Source of the DNA: Candidatus Bathyarchaeia archaeon
Lineage (GTDB): Archaea; Thermoproteota; Bathyarchaeia; Bathyarchaeales; Bathycorpusculaceae
Assembly (NCBI GenBank): GCA_038882955.1
Contig: JAVZNC010000008.1
Span: forward strand, 1 to 38,906
Reading direction: 5' to 3'
DNA length: 38,906 nucleotides
Position numbers and translations under genes: made by a program. Positions within the stretch are counted from its first letter, which is position 1. Each line of letters starts with the position of its first letter. Below are positions 9,270 to 16,750 of this stretch, piece by piece. The notes under the pieces are model-generated. The model was given only the letters and a program-made list of their open reading frames with translations. It was not told where the DNA came from and did not search any database.

Positions 9270-10538
9270 TTAGCTGTTACATTCAGAGACATTAACAGAA
9301 GGCTTAAAAAGTTTAAATTGTTCTGGTACGTTCCTTTTTGGTTTTCTTCTGCATTTTAGGACTGAGACGGATGTTATGATGTTGGTTATTATTATTAAAT
9401 TTGTGATAATAACCGTATAAAGGTTTGAGTTGGGCAAGTTATATTGTAGGGGCATTAGGCTAAGTAAGGCGGGGGTTAATCCAAGCGCGCACATGCCCGT
9501 TATTATCTTTCTGTCAGAGAACATGGGGCTTTTCCATGTTGATATTGAAGCAACTAGATAGCGTATAGTCAAGAGAATGCCAATAATAGGCAAATCGTAA
9601 GTTAATGCTGTAAAGAGGTTCAACTGTGAAATTTCAAACATTAAACCTAACAACACGAAAAAGAATGTCCTAAAAATAAAGGAAATTTCGGCTTGGAAAC
9701 GCTCCAAATACCTCTTAACTTCAGAAAAAGTTGCAGGAGGCGGACTTATTCTAAGTATTCTGAGAATTTCCTTATCGTTACCTAAGATTATGCCAATGGT
9801 GAGGACTGAGAGGACTCCGCTGCCTCGCGATATTTCCGACATAACATAGCCAAGTAGAATTATTCCAACTGTAGCCATATACGTGAGCTCTTCCTTCTGA
9901 AGACTGAAGAGGATTCGTAAACAAATTAAGCCTACAACTGCTCCTATCACTATTCCCACGGAGAATTTTGCTGCAATGTAGGTTAAAGCTTCTACAAAGT
10001 CTAGAATCCCGCCAAGTCGTGTTTCAAGGAAAGCGGAAAAGAAAACTATGTTGAATATGCTTGTCACTGTTGCTTCAATAGACAATAAAATCGCCGACTC
10101 TGCTTGAAAACCGACCCTCATAGCCAAGGGCACAATAACAACCGCTCCAGTTTGGCTGACTATGGATCCAAGCATGAAGCTGTCAATCCACTCCCAGCCC
10201 ATAACAAAATGGAGGAAGACAGCCGTCCACACCATTCCAGCGGCGAAGTAGGCGCTTGCTTGAAATAAGGCCCGAAAGCTTCCCGATACAACATCAAAAA
10301 AGTTTAATTCCATTCCCCCACGGAAAAGTATCATAAGAAGAGTGAATGTTGAAACAATGGGCAGGAACGGGAGAAAACCGCTTTTGGAAAAAATATTCAA
10401 AACTGGACCTATGATTATGCCGGCTGCGATAAGAAATAGTAGGTCAGGCCAGCCTGTTTTCTTAAAGAAAATGTTTCCTAGAAAACCGATGAAAAGTACG
10501 GCGGCAATTATGGAAAAGAAAAGTAAGGGATCTATCAC
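9270..10538 (-). CDS. cation:proton antiporter (CPA1/NhaP-like)
   Basis: About 12-13 TM; PDLLFLI..GIIIGP, ILFRGG, FFFVLLG. Start placed at GTG 10538 after GGAGG. Confidence 0.85.
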   Translation of the reverse strand: MIDPLLFFSIIAAVLFIGFLGNIFFKKTGWPDLLFLIAAGIIIGPVLNIFSKSGFLPFLPIVSTFTLLMILFRGGMELNFFDVVSGSFRALFQASAYFAAGMVWTAVFLHFVMGWEWIDSFMLGSIVSQTGAVVIVPLAMRVGFQAESAILLSIEATVTSIFNIVFFSAFLETRLGGILDFVEALTYIAAKFSVGIVIGAVVGLICLRILFSLQKEELTYMATVGIILLGYVMSEISRGSGVLSVLTIGIILGNDKEILRILRISPPPATFSEVKRYLERFQAEISFIFRTFFFVLLGLMFEISQLNLFTALTYDLPIIGILLTIRYLVASISTWKSPMFSDRKIITGMCALGLTPALLSLMPLQYNLPNSNLYTVIITNLIIITNIITSVSVLKCRRKPKRNVPEQFKLFKPSVNVSECNS

Positions 10539-10914
10539 TATGAAGCCTCCACGTGGATCCAAAATTTAACGCTTAATATTTTAAAATGGTTAGACATTTA
10601 ATCACCATTAATTGGTGTTTCTCCACTTTCTAGTGTTATCAAATATCCTTCTACTCTCCTCAACAGCTAAACATATAGTTGGTAGAGTTATCATCTAAGC
10701 AACAACCCTTCATTTAATGTCTGAGGTAGCCCTTGAAATAATCCTTACTTTCTGCAGTTTCTTATAAAGCTCATCTGAGCTGAAGTATAAATGTCCCCAG
10801 CCTCAACAACGTCTCCTTCAGAACTATCTGTTTGCTAATTATCCTCTGCACCTCAGTTCAAGATTGTCGCTTGCAGTACATGTGAAATTGAAATGCAAAA
10901 TTTAGGTTTGCTGA

Positions 10915-10930
10915 GAAAATGTTTATATCT
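10915..10930 (+). promoter_or_regulatory. archaeal BRE/TATA promoter for the riboswitch transcript
   Basis: GAAAAT-G-TTTATAT about 25-30 nt upstream of the aptamer 5' end. Confidence 0.6.
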
Positions 10931-10952
10931 ACTTTTTGGAGCTTGTAAGTTT

Positions 10953-11016
10953 AAGGCGATGAAGCTCGCCTTTAACCGCCCTCGCTTCTTTGTGTGCGAG
11001 GGCTGACAGCTTCTAC
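10953..11016 (+). ncRNA. fluoride riboswitch (crcB motif)
   Basis: GGCGAUG-AAGC-UCGCC-UUUAACC-GCCCUCGC..GCGAGGGC-UGAC-AGCUU-CUAC: P1 GGCGA/UCGCC, 8-bp P2, pseudoknot GAAGCU/AGCUUC, terminal CUAC. Confidence 0.88.
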
Positions 11017-11119
11017 CAGTGTTAAAATGCGTAGGTGTATTGGGTTGGGGGAAGCGGGGCGGTTAGCTCTTGATAAAGAAGAATATTTTAACCATGACAG
11101 TTCTTGAAGGGAGAAAATT

Positions 11120-11566
11120 ATGGCAAATCGAGATAAAAATGTGAAAATTACAGAAATTCGCACTTATGTCCCTTTAAGCCATGATTACGCCGATTTATTG
11201 GCGAATCTGGTTGCTGCTTTGGAGCTATGCGCAACAACAACAGAGCTTTTAGAAATATGGAGAAATAAATTGAAAGATGAGAATTCCAAGCAGCTTGTGC
11301 AACGTATGATCATTAGTCTCTCTCGATATTTAGGATATCCTGAAGGAAGAGCTTTCAGTCTATACCAGCATAGAGGGAAACGTGAATTTCTTGAAATGAC
11401 ATAGGAAATCCGCGACATTAAAAAAGAACTGGAGACTATTTCCATTAGCAAACAAGGCCTTAAAAGGCTGGAAAAAATCGAAAGGAGACTGAATCAGTTG
11501 GCTAAGAACATGCGCATGGAGATTGAGCGTTTAGCAAAGATGGAGGTCATCGAGTATAGCGGATAG
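11120..11566 (+). pseudogene. helical hypothetical protein interrupted by in-frame TAG at 11402-11404 (nonsense mutation or readthrough)
   Basis: Frame continues for 53 coding-like codons (EIRDIKKELETISISKQGLKRLEKIERRLNQLAKNMRMEIERLAKMEVIEYSG) to TAG 11564-11566, 11 nt before the next ATG. Confidence 0.6.
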
Positions 11567-11577
11567 GTTGTGAGTAA

Positions 11578-11901
11578 ATGTATCAGATTTTTGAGATTAA
11601 ACTGAAGCCTAAAGAAATTGATTTGCGGCAGAAGTTTGACGACGTCAATAGATTGAATTGGTATTTAAACTGTGGAAAACTTGTCAGGGACGATGATGAA
11701 CTGGAGCATGTTTTGGATTTTTCAAATTCTAGGATGAAATGCCTTGTCAGCAGCTTGTTTCCCATAGAGAAAGATGAGTGGTCTCCGAGCGATTACCCAT
11801 CCAGAAAGGAAATGGTAAATACTGCGATAAAAGAGTTAGAAAGGCTTCCTTTCCACTTAGAAGTAGTTAAAGTCAAGAGGTTTGTTAAAAATGAAAAGTA
11901 A
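11578..11901 (+). CDS. hypothetical protein
   Basis: 107 aa, tightly packed in the operon; stop overlaps the MFS start. Confidence 0.75.
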   Translation: MYQIFEIKLKPKEIDLRQKFDDVNRLNWYLNCGKLVRDDDELEHVLDFSNSRMKCLVSSLFPIEKDEWSPSDYPSRKEMVNTAIKELERLPFHLEVVKVKRFVKNEK

Positions 11902-13090
11902 ATCGAACAAGCAAAACGGTAAAAAGTGGCTGAACAGAAATGTGGCGGCAATGGGATTCACGAGCTTGTTCAGCGACGCAAGCCATGAGATGGCTACTTC
12001 CATTCTTGCTCAATTCTTAACAGTCGAGTTGCATGGTTCAGCCGAAATCTTGGGCTTAATAGAGGGGCTAGCGGACTTCTCCTCAAGCTTCATTAAGACA
12101 TACTCTGGTTGGCTAAGCGATAAACTGGGCAGGAGAAAACCTCTTGCAACATTAGGCTACACGCTTACAGGCGTATTTATATCTCTATTTGCCTTTGCAT
12201 CTAACTTCCTTCAAGTATTATTTTATAGAACAGTTGGATGGATTGGAAGAGGCGTAAGAGAACCGCCGAGAGACGCCCTCCTAGCCGATTCGGTTGAGCC
12301 TGAAAGCTACGGTCACGCGTTTGGTTTTCATCGAATGATGGACACGTTAGGCGCCATCATAGGCCCAAGCATAGCTTTTATTCTACTACCCCTTATAGGG
12401 TTTAGGAACGTTTTCCTAGTTGCACTTTTGCCAGGCATCTTAGCGATATTGGTTTTCGCGCTTTTCACAAAGGAAAAGGTTTGTAGACAAAAGGTTGAAG
12501 AAAAGAGAAAACTATTAGGCGACATAAGAGGGTTGCCAACTAAATTCAAACATTACTTGTTAGCTGTAGGCGTATTTGGTGTTGGAAATTTCGCCAACAC
12601 ATTTCTAGTGTTAAGGGCTACAGACGCTTTAACACCAAGTCTCGGAGCTATAGTCGCCAGCAGCATCAGCGCCTTCCTTTACGTGCTGCTTAACGTAGGT
12701 GCTGCAGTTTTCGCTTACATTTTTGGCTCATTGGGAGACAAATTCAGCAAAAAGAAGCTATTAGCCCTAGGATACCTAATTTTCAGCATATACTGCATCG
12801 GCTTCATCTTCTCACCTCCAAATCTCTGGATTTACGCTTTTCTTTTCCTCTTGGCAGGCGTAGAAACAGGAGCCATAGACGCAACTGAAAGGTCATATGC
12901 AGCTGAACTGCTAGAAGAAAACAGAAGAGGAACAGGCTTCGGCATACTCAGCACAATCAACGGCATAGGAGACTTCACATCAAGCATCACCGCAGGAATC
13001 TTATGGACACTAACATCAGCTAGCGCATCTTTCACATTCGGAGCAATACTAGCACTAGCGGCAACAGTGATCTTAATAATTCGCAAGTAA
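11891..13090 (+). CDS. MFS transporter
   Basis: Motif A GWLSDKLGRRK, GRGVREPPRDALLA, repeat GSLGDKFSKK; 12 TM; start placed at ATG 11891. Confidence 0.93.
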   Translation: MKSKSNKQNGKKWLNRNVAAMGFTSLFSDASHEMATSILAQFLTVELHGSAEILGLIEGLADFSSSFIKTYSGWLSDKLGRRKPLATLGYTLTGVFISLFAFASNFLQVLFYRTVGWIGRGVREPPRDALLADSVEPESYGHAFGFHRMMDTLGAIIGPSIAFILLPLIGFRNVFLVALLPGILAILVFALFTKEKVCRQKVEEKRKLLGDIRGLPTKFKHYLLAVGVFGVGNFANTFLVLRATDALTPSLGAIVASSISAFLYVLLNVGAAVFAYIFGSLGDKFSKKKLLALGYLIFSIYCIGFIFSPPNLWIYAFLFLLAGVETGAIDATERSYAAELLEENRRGTGFGILSTINGIGDFTSSITAGILWTLTSASASFTFGAILALAATVILIIRK

Positions 13091-13291: not shown

Positions 13292-13741
13292 CTAGTATTT
13301 TACGCTGAGGTATAGTAGAACAATGAGTGCTGCGAATGTGAATAGGTCTGGTAGTAGGGCGAATGGTCCTAGTCCAAATATTCTGAAGCCGAAGATTGAT
13401 ATTACTATTGGGTTGGAGGCAAGGGCGTAGAGGAGTAATGTTGCTGAGAATATTATTAGTCCGATTGTGAATTCTGATTTTGTTTTTCTGTATATGTCGG
13501 CGTATAGAATTATTAGAAATATTAGCATAGTTATGTTGATCGTGGAAACGACTGTTTTTGCTATGTAATAAAATTCTATATCTCCAGGGATTTCGGATGA
13601 GGGGCGGGGTTGCCATGGAGGGCGCGGATACCAGAAGGTTGAAGTTGCCCATGTTGCTGCTAATATTGCTACCGCTATTAAGATGGGTAAAAGTATCAGC
13701 AGTGGCCAAGTCCTCGATTTCTGATCCATTTCATGTGTCAT
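13292..13741 (-). CDS. 4-TM membrane protein partnered with wHTH regulator
   Basis: AGGAGGT RBS before ATG 13741; four hydrophobic helices; co-transcribed with the upstream HTH gene. Confidence 0.8.
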   Translation of the reverse strand: MTHEMDQKSRTWPLLILLPILIAVAILAATWATSTFWYPRPPWQPRPSSEIPGDIEFYYIAKTVVSTINITMLIFLIILYADIYRKTKSEFTIGLIIFSATLLLYALASNPIVISIFGFRIFGLGPFALLPDLFTFAALIVLLYLSVKY

Positions 13742-13758
13742 CTGCTTTACCTCCTTTT

Positions 13759-14061
13759 CTACTTTTTCCAAATTTTCTTCAAAATTTCCTCAAACAAGGC
13801 GTAATTTTCCTCCATAATGGGGGATAGGAAATATGTGGTGCCATATCCTTCACCTGCAGATACTATTAACTTGTTTTTCTCGAGAACTTCAAGATGATGC
13901 CTTATTGTCCTATAATCCAGTTTAAGATTGGTAGCTAACTGATTCGCGTTTTGCGGAGTCTCCTTTAGAGCTATGATTATTTTTGCACGGGTCAAGCCAC
14001 CTCTCGTACCTGCAATTAACCATCCAAGCAGGTACTTAAGGGGACGCATGCTAGCGGACAT
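13759..14061 (-). CDS. ArsR-like winged-helix transcriptional regulator
   Basis: GTRGG.TRAKII..L...P.NANQLA..L.LDYRTIRHHLEVL..N.LI....GYG..Y. Confidence 0.9.
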   Translation of the reverse strand: MSASMRPLKYLLGWLIAGTRGGLTRAKIIIALKETPQNANQLATNLKLDYRTIRHHLEVLEKNKLIVSAGEGYGTTYFLSPIMEENYALFEEILKKIWKK

Positions 14062-15123: not shown

Positions 15124-16338
15124 ATGGGAATTTATCAAAAACACAAAGCCGCATATTCTTCATTCATCATATTAATCATTATTATTGCTAGCTTGTTTGG
15201 AGGAGGATTATTCGGTTATTTAATAGACCATTGGGCCATGTCAGAAAAACTGGATAGTCTGGAAAATCAACTTTCAACGCTTCAAGAACAAATGTCAAAC
15301 CTACAACAAACACAGAACATCATAAACCAAAATAACACCTACATATTAGGCGAAAATGTTTCGCTTTCAGAATTATACGAGCAGGTCAAAGAGTCCGTTG
15401 TCATAATTCGTGGGGTAATGGTGCAATACGATATTTTCCACCGTCCCTACTACACTCAAGTTCAAGGTTCAGGCTTCGTCTACAACTTTACCGGAGAAAT
15501 GGTGATAATCACAAACTACCACGTGATCGAAAGTACGATCAACATTACCGTGACATTTATAAATGGAGATGGATATGCAGCAACGGTGCTCGGTTCAGAT
15601 CCTTACGCGGACCTAGCAGTGCTTTCAACGGACGCGCCAACAAGCGAGTTCAAACCTCTTGAAATTGCCAGTTCATCCACATTAAAAGTTGGCGATGTTG
15701 TTGTTGCTGTAGGCAATCCATATGGATTATCTGGCTCCATGAGCATTGGCATAGTAAGCGCATTAGGAAGAACCATAACTGAAGAAACAGGCGGATATCC
15801 AATAGCAAACGTCATCCAAACAACAGCACCACTTAACCCAGGAAATTCTGGCGGACCCCTCCTAAATCTTCAAGGTCAAGTTGTAGGCATAACAACAGCC
15901 ATAATAAGCGACTCCCAAGGATTGGGTTTTGCCATCCCATCAAACACGATATTAAGAGAAATTGCTTCACTAGTGACAACTGGTTCCTACAATAATCATC
16001 CATGGTTAGGCGCGTCGGGAATAGACATGACCTATGAAATTGCAAAAGCCATTAGCGCAAACATAACATATGGATGGCTAATAACTCAAGTGGTAAGCGG
16101 AGGCCCAGCAGCTAACGCAGGACTAAAGGGCGGAACAAAACAAGTTTTGATTGCAGGAGAATACGTTACAGTCGGCGGAGACATCATAATAGCAATAAAT
16201 GGAACAAGAATAACCAGCGTAGATACTTTATCTACTTACCTTGAAGAAAACACTTCGCCAGGACAAACAATAGAAGTAACAATAATGAGAGAAAACCAAA
16301 CAATGAATGTTGCAGTAACGCTAGGAACACGTCCATAA
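15124..16338 (+). CDS. membrane-anchored HtrA/DegP-family serine protease with PDZ domain
   Basis: TM plus coiled coil; GSGF, TNYHV, DLAVL, LNPGNSGGPL; C-terminal PDZ. Confidence 0.93.
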   Translation: MGIYQKHKAAYSSFIILIIIIASLFGGGLFGYLIDHWAMSEKLDSLENQLSTLQEQMSNLQQTQNIINQNNTYILGENVSLSELYEQVKESVVIIRGVMVQYDIFHRPYYTQVQGSGFVYNFTGEMVIITNYHVIESTINITVTFINGDGYAATVLGSDPYADLAVLSTDAPTSEFKPLEIASSSTLKVGDVVVAVGNPYGLSGSMSIGIVSALGRTITEETGGYPIANVIQTTAPLNPGNSGGPLLNLQGQVVGITTAIISDSQGLGFAIPSNTILREIASLVTTGSYNNHPWLGASGIDMTYEIAKAISANITYGWLITQVVSGGPAANAGLKGGTKQVLIAGEYVTVGGDIIIAINGTRITSVDTLSTYLEENTSPGQTIEVTIMRENQTMNVAVTLGTRP

Positions 16339-16370
16339 CGCCTCATATAGAACAGCAATGCACTTACCTA

Positions 16371-16404
16371 CATTTTTACTGGTAAATTTGTGTGTAAATC
16401 CCAC
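16371..16404 (+). repeat. third copy of the 13149/13290 repeat
   Basis: CATTTTTACTGGTAAATTTGTGTGTAAATCCCAC, a direct repeat of 13149-13180. Confidence 0.85.
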
Positions 16405-16672: not shown

Positions 16673-16750
16673 TGGTGGACGGGGCGGGATTTGAACCCGC
16701 GGCCTCCACGATGCCAACGTGGCGATCATTCCAGACTGATCTACCCGCCC
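16673..16750 (-). tRNA. tRNA-Ala(GGC), CCA encoded, no intron
   Basis: GGGCGGG..CCACG-TT-GGC-AT-CGTGG..GCGGG-TTCAAAT-CCCGC-CCCGTCC-A-CCA; G3:U70 alanine identity pair. Confidence 0.97.

Follow-up and report, generated by a model that had tools for sequence, protein, structure and literature searches.

A fluoride riboswitch and the remodelled operon behind it in a Bathyarchaeia genome

Aptamer, leader and downstream genes

The stretch of DNA analysed here (the window, 38,906 nt) belongs to contig C8 of a metagenome-assembled genome of a Candidatus Bathyarchaeia archaeon (G000; 31 contigs, 1.54 Mb, completeness 95.6%), for which related reads occur in eight DNA runs labelled "hot springs metagenome" (best word share 0.32). 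Its plus strand carries a fluoride riboswitch aptamer followed by three open reading frames (ORFs): two for small proteins, ORF1 and ORF2, and one for a transporter of the major facilitator superfamily (MFS). We describe this element, the genes behind it, and the larger operon of which they appear to be a part.

An Rfam cmscan of the whole window returned two matches above the gathering score, a tRNA and the crcB motif (RF01734). The latter lies at 10946-11022 on the plus strand, exceeds the gathering score of 34 with 45.4 bits (E 1.4e-9) and covers the full model, 1-64. All pairs of P1 (GGCG/CGCC), P2 (GCCCUCGC/GCGAGGGC) and a 6-bp pseudoknot (GAAGCU/AGCUUC) form in the window. Over an alignment of 26 related leaders (A6), which we used for helix pairing and covariation, the aptamer helices are 99.6% paired and the pseudoknot 100%, and P2 covaries (UA:14, CG:12). 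By model score and helix conservation, 10946-11022 is a genuine fluoride riboswitch of the known class at the presumptive 5' end of the mRNA, and the window's own copy would be expected to bind fluoride. The core, GGCGAUG ... AACCGCC ... GCUGAU, is complete except for its last U, which is C here: the window reads CUGACAG where the Rfam consensus has CUGAUGA, and the key change is a single U-to-C at 11007, as the positions 3' of it vary among relatives anyway. A second aptamer occurs in the same genome on the minus strand of contig C1 (285824-285900, 50.2 bits).

A putative archaeal promoter precedes the aptamer on the same strand (10914-10928). It consists of a purine-rich GAGAAAA resembling a B recognition element and a TATA box, TTTATAT (10922-10928), whose distance to P1 is about 27 nt. 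By itself the heptamer is no more frequent than chance predicts (9.07 occurrences expected in the window, 5 seen), and an A-rich/TTTAT(A/C)T box stands at equal distance upstream of the aptamers in five related loci (L028, L129, L146, L107 and L116). A scan for sigma-70 promoters and hairpin terminators, of a type ill-suited to archaea, found sites no more often than in shuffled sequence and no terminator-like site in the leader.

Downstream of the aptamer, the leader alignment identifies a Shine-Dalgarno (SD)-like AGGTG (11033-11037) and a TTG start codon (11045-11047), both on the plus strand. The TTG is invariant or nearly so in the 26 leaders and is in frame with ORFs for a prenyltransferase-like protein (PRENYL), whose start codon it is in undeleted relatives. 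Four nucleotides past it begins the 3' strand of an anti-aptamer helix (11051-11065, GAAGCGGGGCGGUUA, plus strand), which pairs with 10973-10988 (UAACCGCCC.CGCUUC) and competes with P2. The minimum free energy fold of 10954-11135 forms this helix, and all 15 of its pairs form in the window. Across the leaders, 91.0% of cells are paired, versus 38-54% in controls with a slid partner strand; five pairs have changed on both sides, and the covariation score was reached by none of 500 shuffles. One aptamer column covaries both with its P2 partner (UA:14, CG:12) and with its anti-aptamer partner (CG:10, UA:10, UG:4), as is expected of two mutually exclusive helices.

Three genes follow on the plus strand. 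ORF1 (11120-11404) is 94 aa as encoded, belongs to an uncharacterised family of about 148-161 aa and is cut short by a TAG at 11402-11404; the former C-terminal third, 53 codons and the family's natural TAG stop, lies downstream of it at 11405-11566. ORF2 (11578-11901, 107 aa) belongs to a small uncharacterised family of 11 members, all 107 aa long but for one of 106 aa, and its stop overlaps the start of the MFS gene (11882-13090). The transporter has 402 aa if read from TTG at 11882, and its likely start is ATG at 11891, behind a GAGG at 11877-11880. The window proteins were searched against Pfam and NCBIfam profiles. The transporter matches PF07690 in two stretches that correspond to both six-helix halves (155.6 bits against 33.4, E 2.1e-45), the 12-helix architecture of MFS_1, and reaches no NCBIfam model. 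ORF1 and ORF2 matched no family in either collection. None of the 94 ORF1-family proteins (E <= 0.01, mostly 141-161 aa) has a Pfam domain, and no Pfam signal emerged over the 11 ORF2 members. Compared with the close relative L028, whose MFS protein is 94% identical, in-frame dN/dS is 0.125 before the ORF1 TAG and 0.177 after it (1.1-1.3 out of frame), 0.266 for ORF2 (0.58-1.02 out of frame) and 0.095 for the transporter. These values are low against the out-of-frame range of 0.58-1.30, and both small ORFs are under purifying selection.

Fold searches did not lead to a function for ORF1. The ORF1 model gave a best E of 0.11 against the PDB in Foldseek and a best Z of 11.7 in a wide VIA-align search (generic or designed four-helix bundles and FliS), under the level that is meaningful for helical bundles. 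A profile search of 1.84 billion representatives gave 12 ORF1 hits, all from its own family, and the ESM Atlas gave no usable hit. The ORF2 model has a pLDDT of 56.6, too low for a fold search, and its Atlas rows were below the bar. For the transporter, the nearest solved structure is NorA, a DHA1-type drug/H+ efflux pump (E 3.1e-8, residues 50-399), and the likeness is distant. Unlike NorA-type pumps, the riboswitch-linked MFS subfamily keeps N-terminal W(L/M)N(R/K)NV...D...E and FGFHR..D..GA..GP motifs in archaea and bacteria alike.

The window has neither a CrcB nor a CLC gene. In the genome as a whole, a CrcB profile (PF02537) had zero matches at 95.6% completeness (the positive control matched 11 of 14 genomes), and the best match to the CLC profile (PF00654, Voltage_CLC), a 288-aa frame on C1, stayed below the cut-off at 19.4 bits against 24.8.

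An initial annotation, made from the letters alone, had called an archaeal fluoride riboswitch and proposed a covariance-model check, which the RF01734 score now supplies. It had placed the aptamer just after a TATA box, and relatives keep that box at the same spacing. Its reading of the genes as two small proteins of no recognisable family plus an MFS transporter agrees with the profile searches, and its statement that the window lacks Fluc and CLC-F holds, at the profile cut-offs, for the genome too. It had also remarked on UGACA where the Thermotoga aptamer has UAAUG; a core change does exist, and its notable part is the one U-to-C rather than the variable positions that follow.

Deletion and truncation in the operon

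At L028 the gene order is glycosyltransferase, antiporter (minus strand), riboswitch, PRENYL, a DUF6062 protein, a 161-aa ORF1 homologue, a 107-aa ORF2 homologue and MFS. By blastn the window is colinear with this locus save that L028 3641-5253 is missing. The deletion junction, GCTC-TTGA-TAAAG at 11066-11075, lacks about 1.53 kb relative to L028 and to a genome of the same genus (G002, locus L023), on which it falls at 2140 and 3674. Window positions 11040-11071 correspond to L023 2109-2140, the leader and the first PRENYL codons, and 11070-11093 to L023 3674-3697, just past the DUF6062 stop; TTGA is present as microhomology at both breakpoints. Judged from these alignments, the layout in the window is secondary. 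A microhomology-flanked deletion removed the operon's original first two genes, the prenyltransferase-like gene and DUF6062, and ORF1 later gained its premature stop.

Reading the sequence across the junction gives a remnant leader ORF on the plus strand (11045-11107), with 20 codons and a TGA at 11105-11107. It fuses about the first nine codons of the lost prenyltransferase-like gene to formerly intergenic DNA and ends 12 nt before the ATG of ORF1. Similar independent losses of PRENYL and DUF6062 that left a 5' PRENYL remnant are seen at L133, L146, L159, L143 and L151. A larger loss marks L027 and the genome G011 (L026), where, by blastn, the end of the glycosyltransferase gene runs directly into the 3' end of ORF2 at window position 11827. 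At this point, where homology with the riboswitch-less loci resumes, the window has ATAAAAG (11827-11833, plus strand), speculatively an internal TATA-like element. G011 (L026/L007, C1 about 15174-16378) has no riboswitch cassette, and its MFS gene beside the glycosyltransferase is split in two frames with internal stops, like a pseudogene.

In the source genome, the C1 locus keeps the riboswitch, the prenyltransferase-like gene, DUF6062 and two small genes, and the window keeps the riboswitch, ORF1, ORF2 and MFS. Together the two loci thus hold all eight genes of the full-length operon, which occurs intact at L126, L127 and L137. Duplication and deletion have here divided one operon into two halves, each headed by a riboswitch.

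The truncation of ORF1 is due to a single codon, number 95 of about 148, which is AAG (Lys) in L028 and TAG here. No other change shortens the protein, since its N-terminus agrees with that of the common 148-aa form; the 53 codons beyond the internal stop remain 90.6% identical to L028. A second, slightly different 94-aa sequence of the family is present in the protein collection (P0087), and the stop is therefore probably real rather than a sequencing error. In an AlphaFold model of the full-length family (pLDDT 74.8), ORF1 is predicted to be a helical, four-helix bundle closed by N- and C-terminal strands, from which the truncation would strip the C-terminal strand and the last two of the long helices. 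Pyrrolysine insertion or read-through at the TAG was considered and rejected: the best PylS match is 34.1 bits against 178, none of the 33 tRNAs found has a CUA anticodon, and TAG ends 209 of 819 long ORFs, making it an ordinary stop in this genome.

Linkage of the genes to fluoride aptamers

The ancestral operon would have begun with a prenyltransferase-like alpha/alpha-toroid protein and DUF6062 and continued, in some cases after two small proteins and a Nudix hydrolase, with ORF1 - ORF2 - MFS. On C1 and in its relatives, the usual operon encodes a prenyltransferase/squalene-cyclase-like toroid of about 290 aa (PF00432, 90.4 bits), a Cys-rich DUF6062 protein of about 236 aa (120.2 bits) and two small coiled-coil-like proteins. 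The C1 copy (locus L004 4514-6901) is of the commonest type of fluoride-riboswitch operon in the class, and we know of no role in fluoride biology for any of its genes. ORF1 and ORF2 were considered as relatives of its two small proteins, and this was rejected (BLASTP E 2.6 and 0.59). Aptamers were found in 7 of 41 genomes of the same order, G000 included, and in 23 of 151 sampled genomes of the class; CrcB was above the cut-off in 2 of the 41. In a census of 24 further aptamer hits across the class, with CrcB called by tblastn, the first gene is PRENYL in 13, CrcB in four (plus one, in G145, that is CrcB-like by eye), another type of MFS in four, DUF6062-like in one and unrecognised in one.

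ORF1, ORF2 and the transporter form a conserved module behind these aptamers. The initial annotation had named the three as candidate fluoride-response factors and proposed a search for ORF1 and ORF2 homologues behind fluoride riboswitches elsewhere. We collected 57 metagenome contigs that encode ORF1 relatives, with 58 ORF1 copies and some contigs near-duplicates of one another, scanned them with a covariance model made from 15 aptamers and placed genes by tblastn. A same-strand upstream aptamer accompanies 34 of the 58 copies, or 34 of the 45 informative ones: for 13 of the 24 copies without it, the contig ends no more than 400 nt from the first operon gene that was recognised. Where contig space allows, ORF2 lies behind ORF1 in 32 of 47 copies, and MFS follows in 27 of 38. 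Because they recur together behind fluoride aptamers, ORF1, ORF2 and MFS are good candidates for fluoride-response factors, and the earlier suggestion is well supported. The aptamer lies directly before ORF1 in five copies, at L143, L151, L152 (twice) and L161, on contigs that are partly near-duplicates. At eight loci (L108, L112, L114, L116, L118 and L123-L125), about 600-900 nt between DUF6062 and ORF1 match no reference protein and probably hold a further unclassified operon gene.

The transporter is the sole one behind a fluoride aptamer in G000, and its association with such aptamers reaches into bacteria. Among the best 80 loci with MFS homologues in species genomes, seven have an Rfam-confirmed aptamer upstream on the same strand (L028, L030, L032, L036, L034, L065 and L087). 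Pfam assignments give riboswitch - dynamin-like GTPase - CrcB - DUF190 - MFS in a Nitrospirota-titled sequence (L065), riboswitch - CrcB - DUF190 ... second riboswitch directly before MFS in an Ignavibacteriaceae-titled one (L087), and riboswitch - DUF6062 - enolase - MFS - DUF6062 in an Omnitrophica-titled one (L034). Eight riboswitch-linked MFS proteins have invariant charged residues and the W(L/M)N(R/K)NV motif in common.

Several other arrangements came to light. The first gene at L065 (3353-5143), behind a 58.6-bit aptamer, encodes a 596-aa dynamin-family GTPase. Four loci are tandem, with riboswitch - PRENYL - DUF6062 - Nudix (followed by MFS in L032 3758-7754) and then, on the same strand, a divergent second aptamer, whose P1 is followed by a long insertion, and CrcB; the other three are L189/L169 (G070), L188/L171 (G153) and L190/L170 (G173). 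A second MFS type, 24-26% identical to that of the window and bearing a 'MGIVSM(L/F)GDIVYE' motif, lies directly behind aptamers at L178 (G125), L182 (G148), L184 (G091) and L185 (G063), and two of these four aptamers, in G125 and G091, have the window's U-to-C. A riboswitch operon in G035 (L022) ends with a membrane protein like this second type.

Upstream of the aptamer, 383 nt away and divergently transcribed, is a cation/H+ antiporter gene (9270-10562, minus strand, 430 aa; PF00999, Na_H_Exchanger, 93.7 bits against 26.2). Among NCBIfam models a K+/H+ antiporter fits it best, but the 84.6 bits fall far below the cut-off of 355 and do not settle between the CPA1 and CPA2 subtypes. The initial annotation had enlisted it in the same response as a CPA1 antiporter. 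The comparison speaks against this: the gene is on the opposite strand, no homologue turned up at any of the 57 ORF1 or 24 census loci, and one was seen beside the riboswitch only in the closest relative, L028. It is 52% identical to its L028 counterpart (L028 1939-3225), where flanking genes are 92-94% identical, a contrast suggesting that this gene alone was replaced by another allele or diverged unusually fast.

On the other side, two minus-strand genes (13292-14061) converge on the 3' end of the MFS gene. One encodes a 100-aa ArsR-type winged-helix regulator (HTH_5, E 1.4e-6) and overlaps the start of the other, which encodes a membrane protein of 159 aa. The tRNA in the window is a tRNA-Ala (GGC) at 16676-16750 on the minus strand (Rfam 61.2 bits). 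Elsewhere in the genome, aragorn calls an unusual tRNA-like gene of 99 nt with an anticodon of two bases (C7:19520-19618), possibly an intron-containing tRNA.

A proposed translational switch, its rivals and a probable role in fluoride tolerance

How might the leader act? In the absence of fluoride, the 11051-11065 element would pair with the loop and 5' strand of P2, and initiation would be blocked because that element begins 4 nt after the conserved TTG. With fluoride, P2 and the pseudoknot would hold the shared strand, the start region would be freed and the first ORF translated. The covarying anti-aptamer helix, the conserved TTG that adjoins it and the lack of a terminator-like site together suggest a translational ON switch. 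Bacterial crcB and CLC-F leader riboswitches have the same P1, P2, pseudoknot, core and place in the 5' leader, and are likewise expected to be ON with fluoride. Many bacterial fluoride riboswitches have an overlapping intrinsic terminator, according to the accessible part of PMC2864571, whereas here a covarying helix abuts the start codon; the window also differs from the crcB and CLC-F leaders in that its genes are not Fluc or CLC-F and that one core U is a C. The crcB RNA of Thermococcus kodakarensis is likewise an archaeal aptamer at the 5' end of a non-channel transcript, TK0513 (PMC4247193, accessible part). There crcB (TK0514) is the next gene, whereas G000 has no CrcB.

We consider it likely that a live fluoride riboswitch heads a remodelled form of the clade's operon, acts as a translational ON switch and places ORF1-ORF2-MFS in fluoride tolerance. 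The most likely role of the module is in fluoride tolerance, where the MFS protein would be a proton-coupled exporter of fluoride or of a product of fluoride stress. In the window, the switch would now gate the 20-codon remnant ORF, and control over ORF1-ORF2-MFS would need termination-reinitiation or effects on the mRNA. Coupling of the switch to the three genes, translational control and a transport function are thus expected rather than observed properties of the locus.

A number of observations weigh against this reading. Only the 20-codon remnant now lies behind the start codon under the platform's control. ORF1 has an SD of its own (GGGAG) and the MFS gene its own GAGG, so the downstream genes could be translated whatever the state of the switch. 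Truncation of ORF1 suggests relaxed selection on part of the module, and the C at the near-invariant U of position 11007 may weaken fluoride binding. Eleven informative ORF1 copies lack an aptamer. MFS and CrcB occur together in L065, L087, L032 and G005. In L027 and G011, the MFS gene directly follows the glycosyltransferase gene with no riboswitch, and is broken in G011; the transporter can therefore exist without the riboswitch, and an internal MFS promoter is conceivable for the same reason. Finally, positions 11068-11080, across the junction, are bridged by none of the listed contigs from four other runs. The deletion, the nonsense codon and the core substitution make regulation in the window's copy less certain than the earlier reading assumed.

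A bolder version, which we hold to be doubtful, makes ORF1-ORF2-MFS a third, so far unrecognised, fluoride-detoxifying export system that replaces Fluc and CLC-F, the small proteins being accessory or regulatory and PRENYL and DUF6062 a non-export defence. If true, the MFS protein would move fluoride or a fluoride complex in Bathyarchaeia that have neither Fluc nor CLC-F. The presence of MFS and CrcB in one operon argues against the transporter as a mere substitute fluoride exporter.

The switch may instead be a relic, the aptamer and ORF1 decaying after the deletion, sensing impaired by the U-to-C, and ORF2 and MFS expressed constitutively by read-through from the upstream promoter or from an internal promoter near 11827. 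We regard this as unlikely. The window has C where all 39 PRENYL-first aptamers inspected (several near-identical) have U, as do seven Nudix-first and six CrcB-first ones, and ORF1 carries a nonsense codon. Aptamers directly before ORF1 elsewhere are altered too: L143 has two core changes and a degenerate platform element, and the rest carry core changes other than that of the window, those in L151 and L152 scoring 30.9 and 30.7 bits, under the Rfam gathering score. L027 does have an intact MFS gene with no riboswitch. However, the window aptamer is 11 bits over the gathering score, no pair of the 15-pair anti-aptamer helix or of the 6-bp pseudoknot has been lost, and the U-to-C appears to be tolerated because G125 and G091 carry it before intact transporter genes; moreover, in the cassette-less G011 it is the MFS gene that is broken.

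Could the core changes be functional rather than degenerative? A set of changes to the GCUGAU core that confers altered affinity or another ligand, matched to transporter-led operons, seems improbable to us. The C variant, GCUGAC, does recur in four lineages (the window, L143, G125 and G091), in each of which PRENYL is absent and a transporter of MFS type lies downstream. A separate variant at L152 4692-4761, L161 4692-4761 and L144 6750-6820 has GGCGGUG and GCCAAU in place of GGCGAUG and GCUGAU and scores about 31 bits with Rfam, below gathering; by our mapping, these changes would include both partners of the A6.U38 tertiary pair. That pair of the fluoride riboswitch is named in the accessible part of PMC11586693. 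Yet the lineages with GCUGAC are only four and their contexts mixed, G148 and G063 pairing the same transporter type with U. Fluoride is held through Mg2+ by backbone phosphates, as a review states in its accessible part (PMC5473149), and a base change beside A40 need not shift specificity. As to context, the variant aptamer in L144 precedes a gene for a membrane protein (MAVDRY...), and in L152 and L161 only about the first 20 codons of that gene are left, fused upstream of ORF1.

An assembly artefact, in which the leader-ORF1 join is a chimera formed across riboswitch copies repeated in the genome and community, is very improbable: riboswitch and leader are indeed repeated on C1 and C8, none of the contigs listed from the four other runs bridges the junction and one 903-nt contig from those runs differs before 11080, but the breakpoint lies past the end of the repeat at a 4-nt microhomology far below assembler word length, both flanks match true neighbouring sequence in G002, and like losses of PRENYL and DUF6062 occurred independently in five other loci. 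Only fragments from related strains were recovered among the contigs of the four runs, and where they have T at 11007, this may reflect riboswitch copies that are paralogous or related.

The riboswitch class is known, and its regulon here appears to be unreported. Genes linked to fluoride riboswitches include Fluc, CLC-F, Na+/H+ antiporters, a pyrophosphatase, HAD phosphatases, enolase and formate hydrogen lyase, according to the accessible part of a 2024 review (PMC11139923). Riboswitch-associated accessory genes mitigate fluoride stress (same source, accessible part), and the MFS family described here shares bacterial operons with two of the familiar genes, enolase and CrcB; the window's antiporter differs from the riboswitch-associated Na+/H+ antiporters in that it is encoded on the strand opposite the aptamer and its place beside the aptamer is not conserved. 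The initial annotation had counted MFS transporters among the known fluoride-riboswitch genes; they are not mentioned as such in the main text of that review or in the accessible part of Weinberg 2010 (PMC2864571). In the literature searched, we found nothing that connects the ORF1 or ORF2 families, this MFS subfamily, DUF6062 or PRENYL with fluoride, and no paper on fluoride riboswitches in Bathyarchaeota; early gene lists could include some of these families.

Fluoride riboswitches signpost fluoride-resistance genes, and Fluc and CLC-F were recognised in this way (PMC7266159, accessible part). In this archaeal order, the signpost points mostly to unstudied proteins: a PRENYL toroid, DUF6062, the ORF1 and ORF2 families and a distinct MFS subfamily. 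As the MFS subfamily and DUF6062 also stand in bacterial operons beside CrcB or enolase, the biology is probably general. The locus offers a covariation-supported model of an archaeal riboswitch that would act on translation, and the linkage points to an unstudied fluoride response in microbes without known fluoride exporters.

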